64,000 nucleotides of DNA from the sequence record NC_111505.1. The stretch is one strand, 5' to 3'. Positions 28,390 through 49,949 of this stretch are shown here, one piece after another. The stretch is from a phage. Within the stretch, counting starts at the first letter, position 1. Every line of letters begins with the position of its first letter. The notes beneath the pieces are model-generated. The model had not been told where the DNA came from. It saw only the letters and a list, made by a program, of their open reading frames with translations, and searched no databases. Both the position numbers and the translations under genes were made by a program.

Positions 28390-29301
28390 TTATTTTCCGT
28401 TAACTTTGTTGTAGTTCCCCTGCTCAGATGGGACTATGGTAGAAGGTCTTCCATATTCCTGATAATACCAATCCGCAGCAGATTGGGTAACACCGTTTTC
28501 ATCCGTCCACATCATAGATTTGTATGGCTGCCACTCTTCTGCAGCATTTGTGGATGCAGTGTCTGCAAATGCCCCTGTGTCCCTCTTGTTACCTACGTTA
28601 CTGCCATTCTTACAGTCGTTGACAGCACCTTTTTGCTGGGTCTTGCCCACTTTCTTAGGGTTGCTGTATACAGTTGCATTAACAACCTTGTTCAAGTAGA
28701 ATGTGCGGAACTCTGTAAGTTCTACATCAAACACCATCGCAGCACCTTCACCAACAGACTTGTTGGCAGAAAGGCTGGTTATGATGTAGTTCTCAAGGAG
28801 TCTCTCCTCGGTAACCAAAGAAACCAACTGGCGCTTATTAATGATCTCAGTCAAAGCCTCCAGTGCAGCGCCCGGTCGCATAGATGCTGCAGGGTTTTTA
28901 GAGTCAGTATTCCTGTCAATGTAGTTTTGCTCATAGATTATATGTGGTGATGTATTTACCCTACCAGTAAAAGAAAATACACCATCTTTAATTACAGCGT
29001 GGTCTGACAGGGTAGATTTATCTTCCACCGCAAAATCAGTCTTATCAACCGTATGTTTGAAAGAGTAGTTCTCAATCTGATCGAAGATGATGGCAAGATC
29101 GTTAGTAAAGTTTTTACCCTTCATCTCCGTATTGCGACCACCATAGTTAAGACCGCTGACAAACATAGTGTATTTTACATCGCTTTCAGTTTGCTGCTCT
29201 GCCTTTTCAGCCTTTGGAGATTTAACCTCTTGAGGCTTGTACAGGTCTTTTTCATCAACTATATTGCTTGGCATAACCTCTCCAGGACACTCCGATACCA
29301 T
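28390..29301 (-). CDS. hypothetical tail/baseplate protein (303 aa)
   Basis: ORF track; first gene after tape measure. Confidence 0.3.
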   Translation of the reverse strand: MVSECPGEVMPSNIVDEKDLYKPQEVKSPKAEKAEQQTESDVKYTMFVSGLNYGGRNTEMKGKNFTNDLAIIFDQIENYSFKHTVDKTDFAVEDKSTLSDHAVIKDGVFSFTGRVNTSPHIIYEQNYIDRNTDSKNPAASMRPGAALEALTEIINKRQLVSLVTEERLLENYIITSLSANKSVGEGAAMVFDVELTEFRTFYLNKVVNATVYSNPKKVGKTQQKGAVNDCKNGSNVGNKRDTGAFADTASTNAAEEWQPYKSMMWTDENGVTQSAADWYYQEYGRPSTIVPSEQGNYNKVNGK

Positions 29302-46492: not shown

Positions 46493-46591
46493 GGTGCTAG
46501 GTGATGGAATCGAACCATCTATGTATTCAACGACTACCTCGTCTATTTTCAGGATTAAAAATCCTCGCCCTTGCCAAAGGGCTTACCTAGC
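46493..46591 (-). tRNA. atypical tRNA-like element (~97 nt), anticodon ambiguous (possibly UUU)
   Basis: Good acceptor (GCTAGGT/ACCTAGC), D-arm (GCCC/GGGC) and T-arm (GATGG/TTCGATT/CCATC), but anticodon arm is a near-palindrome (AGGATTTTTAATCCT) and about 30 nt lie between anticodon arm and T-arm. Confidence 0.4.
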
Positions 46592-47495: not shown

Positions 47496-47499
47496 GTTT

Positions 47500-47780
47500 C
47501 CTCCATTATCACGTGATAGGTGGATTTTATCACGGCAAATACTGATTGTCAAGTTCGCCGCAGGGTGGTATTCCCTGCGACTTGCCCAGCGTCCTAGACC
47601 AGCAAGACCCAACAAGTGGGTTACCAGAGACCCATTACCGCGCTTTGGCTCGACCTTATTACAGGTTGGCTGGGGTCACATCGTCATGTGCTGGCTGCCC
47701 CTACCATTTTAAGTGTGGTGCACTATCAAGCCCTCTAAGGGGAACTCAGCCTTCTCCGAACCCTGTTTCAAAGCATCCGG
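47500..47780 (-). ncRNA. GC-rich structured non-coding region (candidate leader or small RNA)
   Basis: Locally GC-rich relative to flanks; perfect 7-bp hairpin CGCAGGG/CCCTGCG at 47569-47589; the only ORFs here are plus-strand ORFs in the six-frame track (47431-47712, 47546-47860) that do not look coding. Confidence 0.3.
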
Positions 47781-48358: not shown

Positions 48359-48937
48359 TCAACGTTCGTAGTAAATCTTATTCAACATTACCTCATCGTT
48401 TGCAGAAAGGATATCAAGATATGCATCACCAAATCTGCCTGCAACAACCTCTGCATGATACATCACTTCGTCAACATCGTCAAGAGTGATAACCGGATGA
48501 CCATATCTTTCTGAATATTGCCTCAGGGTGCGATGTAACGAGTCGTCATCATATGCAGACTTTTTAATATCACAAACACGACGAATGGCCTTGATGTCGA
48601 AAAAACCTGTGCGATACCACCCAAGAAAAAAGTTCCGTGTGGTGTCAACATCTACATCAATACCATCAAGAACCTTATCTACAAGATAGCTGTCATCCTT
48701 TGGACCAGCGTCCTTAGTGCGAATGTAGTTGCCATCTTTTCCAGGCGATAGCTCCTTCTCATCACCAACCTGCATGCCATCATTTGGCGGTGTTAGCCAC
48801 TTATCCGGATGCTTACGATCACGAGCGTTAGAATGATTACGCTGGAAACCTGGCTTCCACTTGAAAGTTTTCTCCATCTGTTCTTCATTCTGATAACGTT
48901 TTGCAATCTTTTCGCGGTCATCTTTGCGTGAACTCAT
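48359..48937 (-). CDS. hypothetical protein (192 aa)
   Basis: ORF track; first gene downstream of the long regulatory intergenic region. Confidence 0.35.
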   Translation of the reverse strand: MSSRKDDREKIAKRYQNEEQMEKTFKWKPGFQRNHSNARDRKHPDKWLTPPNDGMQVGDEKELSPGKDGNYIRTKDAGPKDDSYLVDKVLDGIDVDVDTTRNFFLGWYRTGFFDIKAIRRVCDIKKSAYDDDSLHRTLRQYSERYGHPVITLDDVDEVMYHAEVVAGRFGDAYLDILSANDEVMLNKIYYER

Positions 48938-49039
48938 AACTGCCTCCTCTTCAAGTTATAGAAAAACTCACTGTATCGCTTTGTAACGAGCTTTTCTATC
49001 AAACTGGTGCGATTGCCTTACTTGGTATAGTTTACGCAG

Positions 49040-49310
49040 CTGTGTGGCGATTTAGGGGCCTTCCTGTCCGTTTCCACACATAAACTTTAACCAAACTCGC
49101 GCGGGAGGCTCTCAACCGACTCCTTACGGCGCTGGCAAGCTTTCGTCGGTGGCCCACATTAGTGCTCGGCATTTGGCCTGCGCTATCGCTTCGCTCCCAC
49201 ACATGTTAACAGTCCTGCATGTATGCACTCCTGTTATTGTGTGCACTATGGAGGCCCGGCATCTCGCCCCTCGTAGGCGAGTGCCAATGAGGGGCCGACA
49301 CTACCAATAG
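49040..49310 (-). ncRNA. GC-rich structured non-coding region (candidate leader or small RNA)
   Basis: No ORF of 60 aa or more on either strand across 48938-49598; nested hairpins (CTCGCC/GGCGAG, CCCCTC/GAGGGG at 49263-49295); GC-rich island in AT-rich surroundings. Confidence 0.3.
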
Positions 49311-49440
49311 TAAGTAATAAATTTAAAACATGGTACTTAGGATCTAGTATATTCTACATAAGTTAAGTATATGTACTTTAGTACCATAAGTACTAGATCT
49401 TTTATTTTTTATTATTTAGTTATTTTAGTTATATTCTTTA
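49310..49440. promoter_or_regulatory. AT-rich segment with nested inverted repeats (candidate promoter/origin region)
   Basis: Inverted repeats such as GATCTAGTA / TACTAGATC and GGTACT / AGTACC within very AT-rich DNA between the GC-rich island and the repeat array. Confidence 0.35.
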
Positions 49441-49441
49441 T

Positions 49442-49525
49442 GTGTCCGTATCACGGACAGTTAGTGTCCGTATTACGGGCAGATGTGTCCGCGTGACGGA
49501 CAGTAGTGTCCGTATCACGGACAGT
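49442..49525. repeat. four tandem copies of a 19-bp palindromic site (operator/iteron-like)
   Basis: GTGTCCGTATCACGGACAG (49442-49460), GTGTCCGTATTACGGGCAG (49464-49482), GTGTCCGCGTGACGGACAG (49486-49504), GTGTCCGTATCACGGACAG (49507-49525); 21-22 bp period; each an inverted repeat. Confidence 0.7.
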
Positions 49526-49598
49526 TACTACCCTCTGCTCTGGGATGGACATAAAACATACGAATCCTTATAGTACAGATATTTAAGTTTTTACTGGT

Positions 49599-49949
49599 CT
49601 AACCAGTTGTTGACATTCGAATAACCTCTTCTGGTGGCAAAACTTTGGAAAATGTGCACCTTTTACCTCTCCCTTGTGTGGATATTTCAACCACTCCTGC
49701 ACATTCTAAAGTTTTAACGCACGCTGCTGCTTTTGTTTTCTTTATCCCAACATCTGCTGCAATTTTCCTTGTGCTGGGTGTGAAGCGTGAACTTCCTCCA
49801 AGCTTATACCAGTTGTGCAGGTAGCAGTATACGATCTTGTCATACAAGTCAAGAATAACAACCTCCCCAGTTGTGTCATTCAAAACTTTTGACATAGACA
49901 GTATTTCAAGGGGGACTTTAAGATATAGCAGCTTATCCCCATCTTTCAT
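49599..49949 (-). CDS. putative DNA-binding protein with helix-turn-helix (116 aa)
   Basis: Segment TRKIAADVGIKKTKAAACVKTLECAGVV resembles a winged-helix recognition region; adjacent to the repeat array. Confidence 0.35.
   Translation of the reverse strand: MKDGDKLLYLKVPLEILSMSKVLNDTTGEVVILDLYDKIVYCYLHNWYKLGGSSRFTPSTRKIAADVGIKKTKAAACVKTLECAGVVEISTQGRGKRCTFSKVLPPEEVIRMSTTG

Follow-up and report, generated by a model that had tools for sequence, protein, structure and literature searches.

The origin of bacteriophage lambda (ori-lambda) consists of four tandem dyad repeats of about 18–19 bp beside an AT-rich unwinding region, and winged-helix dimers bind to the repeats. Lambda-related phages swap the initiator and its repeat specificity as a unit (the lambdoid O/ori types). 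In oriV of plasmid RSF1010, iterons and GC- and AT-rich segments are followed by the hairpins ssiA and ssiB, which are used by the plasmid primase and function as single strands. Here, both systems are compared with a gene-free gap at positions 48938–49598 of a 64,000-nucleotide stretch of phage DNA (NC_111505.1; the whole stretch is referred to as the window). The phage is an rV5-like (Vequintavirus) coliphage and the genes around the gap lie on the minus strand. Read in this direction, the gap contains four palindromic repeats, an AT-rich block and a GC-rich island with a covarying folded core. Comparison with related sequences suggests that the gap may be a three-part, iteron-type replication origin of the rV5-like phages, with a folded single-stranded element as its constant third part. 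This reading is the one preferred here, and it is held tentatively, at slightly below an even chance.

The gap resembles ori-lambda in that four dyad repeats adjoin an AT-rich region and in that the protein and the repeats have been exchanged in a divergent phage (L018, see below). However, the lambda origin lies inside the O gene, whereas the repeats described here are situated past the stop codon of the gene for a winged-helix protein of 116 amino acids (aa). The O protein has a C-terminal domain recruiting P-DnaB; the 116-aa protein has no second domain and no detectable sequence similarity to O. Furthermore, the AT-rich block is about three times longer, and the 294-nt covarying GC-rich element has no counterpart in lambda. 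In this respect the gap is closer to RSF1010 oriV, with repeats, an AT-rich segment and then hairpins in which loop and junction bases are conserved while the stems vary. There is no sequence relationship to oriV, though, and no primase is linked to the gap. One large multi-hairpin domain on one strand is present instead of two opposed ssi hairpins, and its GNRA-class loop and G-U pairs are no less compatible with RNA than with DNA. With its iterons and AT-rich DNA, the gap adds one more example to a familiar class; what was unexpected is the covarying island and its presence in satellite-like plasmids.

The gap as described here is real and has no explanation in the existing annotation. An earlier note on this DNA, made from the letters alone, had reported that no open reading frame (ORF) of at least 60 aa is present and that coding features do not explain the region. 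Both statements hold. In GenBank records the gap is empty, marked as a bare 'repeat_region' (few records) or filled with tiny ORFs; these ORFs of 31–56 aa, called as genes in some records, have no coding signal. The promoter and terminator tables of the rV5 genome paper have no entry within the gap, and the origin was sought in that paper by skew, without success. The 1.8 kb surrounding the gap are 96–98.6% identical to Escherichia phages FV3 and rV5 and to more than 110 other Vequintavirus records.

The four-repeat array (49442–49527) is built from a dyad-symmetric 22-nt unit with start-to-start spacings of 22, 21 and 21 bp. The palindrome TGTCCGTatcACGGACA has a symmetric part of 17 bp (7+3+7, TGTCCGT atc ACGGACA), and its copies at 49443–49459, 49465–49481, 49486–49502 and 49507–49523 are about two helical turns apart. 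The earlier note was right about the number of copies and their spacing of 21–22 bp, but it gave the palindrome 19 bp and slightly different borders. Allowing up to three mismatches, eight strand-matches are found in the 64-kb window; these are the four sites and no others. The chance expectation is 0.06, and none of 100 shuffles reaches the observed count.

Directly adjoining the array is the AT-rich block (49302–49441), a putative DNA-unwinding element by its base composition. It is the lowest-GC 140-bp stretch of the window (20% versus 43.8% overall), which also has its lowest 100-bp value there. As the earlier note had seen, the block contains inverted repeats. These are two interleaved pairs of 8–9 bp whose arms are 50 bp apart: ATGGTACT (49330–49337) with AGTACCAT (49380–49387), and GATCTAGTA (49341–49349) with TACTAGATC (49391–49399). 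The block has two GATC sites, and both sit in the second pair.

Conservation was measured on an alignment of eight relatives that are 4–10% divergent over the region. Variable columns make up 3.5% of the repeats and 9.1% of the AT-rich block, compared to 13.3% of the leader of the downstream 192-aa gene, 20.1% of the GC-rich island and 28.8% of the spacer between the array and the upstream gene, the highest value of the region (alignment A1, columns 30–95, about 5 bp narrower than the spacer itself). Neighboring coding DNA differs by about 10% among the same relatives. Therefore, the repeats and the AT-rich block are under stronger constraint than the surrounding coding DNA, which is the pattern expected for cis-acting DNA.

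Some records end close to the array. The independent Logan assemblies L008, L009 and L010 stop 113–168 bp past the stop codon of the 116-aa protein gene, within or at the edge of the repeats (49431–49525), and GenBank entry MG065672.1 ends 74 bp past the same codon. Assembly breaks at palindromes or AT-rich DNA could cause this, as could true DNA ends.

The GC-rich non-coding island (49006–49299, minus strand) comprises 294 nt, with borders set by homology. Hairpin H1 at its 5' end is followed by a variable hairpin, then by the core motif and finally by a 3' part. At 49098–49197 the GC content reaches 64%, a 100-bp value that is equaled but not exceeded elsewhere in the window. The island is conserved in 118 phage records (88–98% identity), and its 22 distinct phage versions differ by insertions or deletions of 1, 3 and 18 nt. 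In the frame of its longest ORF (49032–49202, 56 aa), the variable columns are distributed over the codon positions as 9/19/14. Because of this distribution and the frame-breaking indels, the ORF was rejected as a coding sequence.

Hairpin H1 (49250–49299, minus strand; GGCCC / GGCA-CUCGCC ... GGCGAG-A-UGCC / GGGCC) is near-invariant in the phages. Plasmid L013 retains it but differs by two compensatory changes, GGCA/UGCC to GUCA/UGAC and CUCGCC/GGCGAG to CUCUCC/GGAGAG. In most other plasmid-like loci (L012, L014, L015, L016 and L139), and likewise in L229, a different 10-bp hairpin occupies this slot. The middle hairpin is weakly maintained; phages of the Murica group have lost half of it.

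The core motif (49091–49204, minus strand) has 114 nt and scores 135 bits with a covariance model built here (R1). RNAalifold predicts a three-way junction from its phage and plasmid versions. The closing helix of 6 bp pairs ACCGAC (49145–49150) with GUCGGU (49115–49120) and encloses a 24-nt segment (49121–49144), GAAAG-[GCU UGCC AGC]-G-[CC GUAA GG]-A; the next G is already part of GUCGGU. Further on comes the conserved sequence AGAGYCUCCCGCG. With model R1, the core is detected exactly once in the window and once in the complete FV3 genome.

In the core alignment A4 (17 sequences), 99.1% of the cells are paired and both partners have changed in 10 of the 19 pairs. For none of five measures was the observed value attained in 500 shuffles, and sliding the partners by 1–3 columns lowers the paired fraction to 26–44%. 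In an unfitted MAFFT alignment, pairing is 99.2% and four pairs are already compensatory. Three versions of the closing helix occur in A4, ACCGAC/GUCGGU in the phages, GCUGCC/GGCAGC in plasmid type 1 and CCGUCC/GGACGG in plasmid type 2. A fourth version in L229, GUCCGGAU/AUCCGGAC, was recognized by eye and is undetected by the model; it has the same position and a different apical part. The inner 3-bp hairpin changes from GCU/AGC to GGC/GCC, and the terminal tetraloop is GUAA, GGAA or GGGA, always within the GNRA class. Thus, the core fold has strong support from compensatory base changes.

Twelve G-U cells compared to three unpaired cells on the sense strand favor the minus strand as the folded one. 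Folding energies do not tell the strands apart (difference of 0.7 ± 4.6 kcal/mol for the 22 phage variants), and whole-island RNAalifold structures score alike on both strands and are distrusted. The energy z-scores of the island, -1.3 and -1.7 on the two strands, are not significant. The nested hairpins that the earlier note had placed in a GC-rich island are accordingly not borne out by folding energy alone; the GC-richness of the island is confirmed. Of the suggested structured leader or small RNA, the word 'structured' can be kept for the 114-nt core, by its compensatory changes. The covariance-model scan proposed as a check yields no known family with Rfam and a single copy per genome with R1.

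With the 4227 models of Rfam 15, which include ribozymes, SRP, tmRNA, 6S and phage RNAs, only tRNAs pass the gathering threshold in the window. The island is comparable to Rfam families in its size and its GC-rich multi-hairpin character, but none reaches its gathering score. A sensitive scan of 48850–49700 gave three sub-threshold matches at chance level. The best of these, rli43 (25.8 bits against a cut-off of 100), spans the AT-rich block and the repeats and is spurious. Three likenesses noticed by eye were given up: a long 3' helix (GUUUA/UAAAC and UUGGU/ACCAA) is not kept in L002, L003 and L018, and a loop similar to SRP RNA domain IV and a GCGAAGC mini-hairpin have no support from Rfam or conservation. 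Scans of genome and metagenome collections with exact 18-mers returned about 200 loci, which were filtered by sequence context; all but eight are chance matches in GC-rich bacteria. A degenerate core pattern recovered L018 again from IMG/VR and nothing further.

The gene upstream of the gap (49599–49949, minus strand) encodes the 116-aa protein, which is a winged-helix DNA binder and the putative ligand of the repeats; the small helix-turn-helix (HTH)-like protein of the earlier note is thereby confirmed. PHROGs and RefSeq label it 'replication initiation protein'. It belongs to phrog_12838 (1.8e-79). Weak matches are to phrog_8102 and phrog_428, which carry the same label, in their N-terminal DNA-binding parts, and to HTH_36 and DUF6945 in Pfam. 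A profile search of the PDB, with distant homologues included, ranks the uncharacterized entry 4RO3 first, followed by the winged helices of MarR, SlyA and CodY. At identities of at least 86% the protein is confined to Vequintavirus; word-index, exhaustive HMMER and IMG/VR searches for homologues returned near-identical proteins or noise and nothing else. A single-sequence AlphaFold model is uninformative (predicted local distance difference test, pLDDT, of 35).

More is learned from L018, a 137-kb phage contig from IMG/VR. The 192-aa gene downstream of the gap, its leader and the island align with the window, and the sequence upstream of the island is unrelated. The slot of the 116-aa protein is occupied by a distant homologue of 143 aa (27% identity, E 6e-7), which has the same weak matches to HTH_36, DUF6945 and phrog_8102 and an unrelated C-terminus. 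Its gene is followed by five to six copies of ATCTGATGCA in direct and inverted orientation, an A-rich tract and then the island. Therefore, the protein and the repeats were swapped as a unit while the island was kept. This co-replacement supports the two as a putative cognate pair. A distant homologue labeled as an initiator, gp177, is also found in Proteus phage Mydo, beside an AT-rich divergent intergenic region. The gene order in Mydo and in a Seunavirus-like Salmonella phage, members of other genera of the Vequintavirinae, is unlike that of the window, and no four-fold repeat array was found at these two loci, which were not included in the core-model scan.

BLAST searches with the island against E. 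coli genomes and PLSDB matched only circular 'plasmids' of 13.2–13.7 kb and one record of 39.6 kb. The latter (NZ_CP043822.1, partly covered by L012) matches in three places, with a spacing consistent with three head-to-tail units of about 13.2 kb. The set of plasmid-like loci comprises L013–L016, L229, L012, L139, L159 and L243–L246 (e.g. NZ_CP020521.1, CP148565.1, NZ_CP035869.1, NZ_CP178698.1 and CP134895.1), and the island matches fall in stretches without annotated gene. Hence the region is not one thing confined to this phage, as the earlier note had treated it; the island is a separable module. It is the sole non-coding homology of these elements with the whole FV3 genome.

The elements encode their own major head protein, a Neck1-like protein, several HTH proteins, an rV5-type tape measure protein (phrog_5255, 2.6e-161) and a Dit-like protein with 55% identity to the product of window gene 28588–29145. 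A 303-aa protein has weak matches to O-like initiator PHROGs (phrog_391, 'replication initiation O-like'). Terminase, portal, sheath and tube genes are absent from the elements. Searching with the Dit-like protein reveals a large family with many contigs of 13–15 kb and 19–21 kb, and one protein cluster of the elements has 438 members. No description of the family was found in the literature.

Upstream of the island, L244 and L245 contain four copies of the dyad-symmetric TACCCCCGGCA..GCCCAGGGTA with spacings of 24, 22 and 33 bp, and L243 contains five copies of the perfect palindrome CGGTAAATTTTACCG with spacings of 24, 23, 33 and 100 bp. These repeats are followed by about 35–50 bp of AT-rich DNA (by reading), by a GC-rich hairpin region with the core and, farther downstream, by the operon that includes the gene of the O-like 303-aa protein. 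The two phage and two plasmid repeat types are unrelated, thus four types precede the same kind of AT-rich block and the same core. Separately, three-hairpin cassettes with stems of 5–7 bp and loops of 3–4 nt are seen upstream of the core in L013, L016, L139, L229 and L243. They are bounded by UGUGUGG(G), are duplicated or lost from element to element, and have stems that vary compensatorily (e.g. GUGCC/GGCAC, GUGCU/AGCAC and GUCAC/GUGAC).

Since the plasmid-like elements replicate as plasmids, the unit of repeats, AT-rich DNA and island is the obvious origin candidate there. The phage has a unit of the plasmid type beside an initiator-like winged-helix gene, therefore an iteron-type origin is the most economical reading of the gap as well. 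We infer the following course of events. Dimers of the 116-aa protein would bind to the four 17-bp palindromes, which lie on one helix face at two-turn spacing, and the nucleoprotein complex would melt the adjoining 140-bp AT-rich block. The island would act as a single-stranded fold, either in a read-through sense transcript or in the unwound DNA strand. The invariant junction and loops of the core might then be recognized by a shared replication factor, for priming or for entry of the replisome. In such an origin, the repeats and their binding protein would provide an exchangeable specificity and the folded core would be retained. For the origin with iterons that the earlier note had mentioned as one option, the conservation of repeats and AT-rich block, the cassette exchange in L018 and the layout in the plasmid-like elements thus give comparative support. 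The uniqueness of the repeats in the window, the extreme AT-richness of the adjoining block, the initiator PHROGs matched by the 116-aa protein and the covarying core also speak for an origin. So does the single copy per phage genome, situated 1.4 kb from the switch of skew and divergent transcription that the rV5 authors had noted.

Several points weigh against an origin. It is its position that ties the island to replication, and a covarying fold with a GNRA loop suits a regulatory RNA equally well. The case for the fold has its own weak spots: alignment A4 was fitted to the model, so the covariation counts are somewhat inflated, and only a small number of deep lineages is represented (phage A, phage L018 and three or four plasmid types). 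The 116-aa protein is a plausible initiator by weak similarity and database labels, but it could be a plain regulator. RepA_N appears in the PDB profile search with E=0.18, behind MarR, SlyA and CodY, and a helicase-recruiting domain is not recognizable in the protein. No match to the DnaA box (TTWTNCACA) or IHF (WATCAANNNNTTR) consensus is present in 49290–49600; such sites are common in many plasmid origins, whereas lambda-type origins do not require them. In the plasmid-like elements, the island and the initiator-like operon are separated by a strong sigma-70 promoter, which would allow the island to form a unit of its own. The skew switch noted by the rV5 authors is accounted for by the change in the direction of transcription.

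Control of transcription is an unlikely alternative, though the most probable of the rivals. The gap would head the leftward late operon, with the winged-helix protein as a regulator on four operators and the island as a cis-acting RNA in the read-through transcript, either a processive antitermination element like lambda nut and HK022 put or an element of RNA processing or stability. Transcription from an early promoter would be carried on into the tRNA, lysis, terminase, head and tail genes, and satellites would keep the island RNA in order to respond to the helper phage. The gap indeed lies between early-type genes (PNK-like ATPase, phosphoesterase, HTH protein) and about 45 kb of genes on the same strand, a unit with several predicted intrinsic terminators. 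The core is single per genome, stands at the start of this unit and has RNA hallmarks, namely the tetraloop class and the excess of G-U over unpaired cells. MarR/SlyA-type regulators are the best structural relatives of the 116-aa protein, and in the plasmid-like elements the island precedes an operon ending with the tape-measure gene. As in nut boxB and put, small covarying stem-loops with conserved purine-rich or GNRA-like loops would sit in an early transcript just past a small HTH gene and ahead of long operons. However, the gap has no boxA/boxB or put-like sequence or architecture, no match in Rfam and no promoter immediately upstream. The regulated promoter proposed in the earlier note is not seen: the scan of 49300–49600, which covers sigma-70-like and not phage-specific promoter types, finds no sense-strand site in, overlapping or next to the repeats, and the rV5 tables list none. 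The operators would thus sit downstream of the regulator's own gene and at no predicted promoter, and the sigma-70 promoter of the plasmid-like elements comes after the island, not before it. Transcription control also leaves unexplained why the AT-rich block stands out as the extreme of the window and ranks with its best-conserved DNA, and why repeats and AT-rich DNA lie beside an initiator-like gene in autonomous elements.

A trans-acting non-coding RNA is quite improbable. The island would then be an independent, horizontally exchanged copy-number or immunity RNA or an anti-defense decoy that happens to stand beside the repeats. Its modularity would suit such a role, since hairpin cassettes are gained, lost and duplicated; in L229 a different apical part sits on a core helix of unchanged position, as in the specificity loops of antisense RNAs, and no known RNA family is matched. 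In the phage, though, no promoter or terminator brackets the island. A search for a trans target of the invariant loop revealed nothing past chance, as complementarity in FV3 or the plasmids does not exceed 11 nt apart from the island's own antisense strand. Furthermore, the island follows repeats and an AT-rich block in every lineage examined. A packaging-initiation (pac) region is also regarded as very improbable. Here the winged-helix protein would recognize the four repeats in the manner of a small terminase subunit, as gpNu1 of lambda does with the R sites of cosB, and the island would be the part used by the large terminase of the helper, which would explain why terminase-less satellites have to carry it. 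Headful (pac) packaging with circular permutation is reported for rV5-like phages. In the examined regions of pangalan, FV3 and Murica, no small terminase gene is annotated and none adjoins the gene of the large subunit, which lies on the same strand 3.7 kb downstream of the gap. The plasmid-like elements have a capsid protein and tail parts and neither terminase nor portal, the island is their one non-coding sequence in common with FV3 at one copy per genome, and the 39.6-kb record is a head-to-tail trimer. Against packaging, recognition of double-stranded DNA gives no cause for compensatory stem changes or a conserved GNRA loop class, and searches of Pfam, PHROGs and NCBIfam connect the 116-aa protein with no terminase family. 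Docking on a conserved large terminase is not easily reconciled with the replacement of the subunit in L018 by a homologue whose C-terminus is unrelated, and the satellites do not have the repeats of the phage.

Whichever function applies, the plasmid-like elements are candidate satellites of rV5-like phages by their shared sequences. It is possible, if rather doubtful, that the core (49091–49204) represents a new class of cis-element through which plasmid-borne satellites of 13–20 kb tap the replication or packaging machinery of these lytic myoviruses. Phage and satellites would then share a 'universal' origin or packaging module, to which each lineage adds its own initiator and repeats. A precedent is P4, which carries the cos site of P2: here, too, a small element, which has neither terminase nor portal and lacks most tail genes, has one short non-coding segment in common with a large phage and also carries diverged copies of a few virion genes. 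The shared segment differs in being a covarying fold by a putative origin and not a known cohesive-end site. The elements described here are plasmids and not integrated islands, and their link to a helper is inferred.

Biocontrol and therapy directed against pathogenic E. coli, O157 included, make wide use of rV5-like phages. No origin, pac site or late-gene control has yet been defined for them, and the sole published search for an origin failed. The gap provides a concrete candidate origin, and its core is an unclassified covarying fold, single-copy in the phage and common to a widespread family of small E. coli plasmids. If the link between phage and plasmids holds, it would explain 'cryptic' 13-kb plasmids of clinical and animal isolates, open studies of satellite-helper conflict for a major therapeutic phage group and add an origin or packaging architecture of a new kind, in which the parts that set specificity are exchangeable and a folded part stays constant. 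The elements would be the first known satellites of Vequintavirus, and the origin architecture the first with an obligatory conserved three-way-junction fold.

On the minus strand, the gene order around the gap is PNK-like ATPase, phosphoesterase, 116-aa HTH protein, gap and 192-aa protein, followed by small ORFs, six tRNAs, spanins, large terminase and the head and tail genes. This leftward unit starts at a divergent promoter region at about 51000, 1.4 kb to the right of the gap. No transcriptome of a Vequintavirus was found in the literature. The 192-aa gene (48359–48937, minus strand; phrog_12226) bounds the non-coding region downstream. In the GenBank phage collection it occurs in Vequintavirus only; L018 is an additional, metagenomic case. 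Its leader (48938–49005, minus strand) is strongly conserved, being about 90% identical in L018 (approximately 6 differences in 68 nt), and has no counterpart in the plasmid-like elements. A 12-bp inverted repeat (48958–48969 and 48988–48999) directly precedes the ribosome-binding site, which suggests translational or transcriptional control of the 192-aa gene.

The poorly conserved spacer from the HTH stop codon to the repeats (49528–49598) contains an antisense sigma-70-like site at 49546–49574 on the plus strand (TGGACA-17-TATAGT, score 10/12), whose -10 element is TATAAT in the L003 group. It is 19 bp away from repeat 4 and directed into the 3' end of the HTH gene, and may give rise to an autoregulatory or origin-activating transcript.

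Further stretches without annotated gene were noticed. In FV3 (NC_019517.1), 2.26 kb at 104329–106593 (L240, 4329–6593) lie at a convergent junction of two transcription units and probably correspond to the box labeled 'non-coding' on the genome map of rV5; the one match of the core model there is at chance level (E=1.1). A second GC-rich stretch of the window (47496–47745, up to 61% GC) lies between genes for 112-aa and 80-aa proteins and has no Rfam match and no homology with the plasmid-like elements. It contains a strong promoter-like sequence, TTGACA-17-TAAAAT at 47552–47524 on the minus strand, which corresponds to P074 of rV5. In the tRNA cluster, a 99-nt tRNA-like gene (46493–46591, minus strand) is assigned a four-base anticodon (atcc) by ARAGORN. 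This gene is called 'tRNA-OTHER' in GenBank records and scores 37.5 bits with the Rfam tRNA model.

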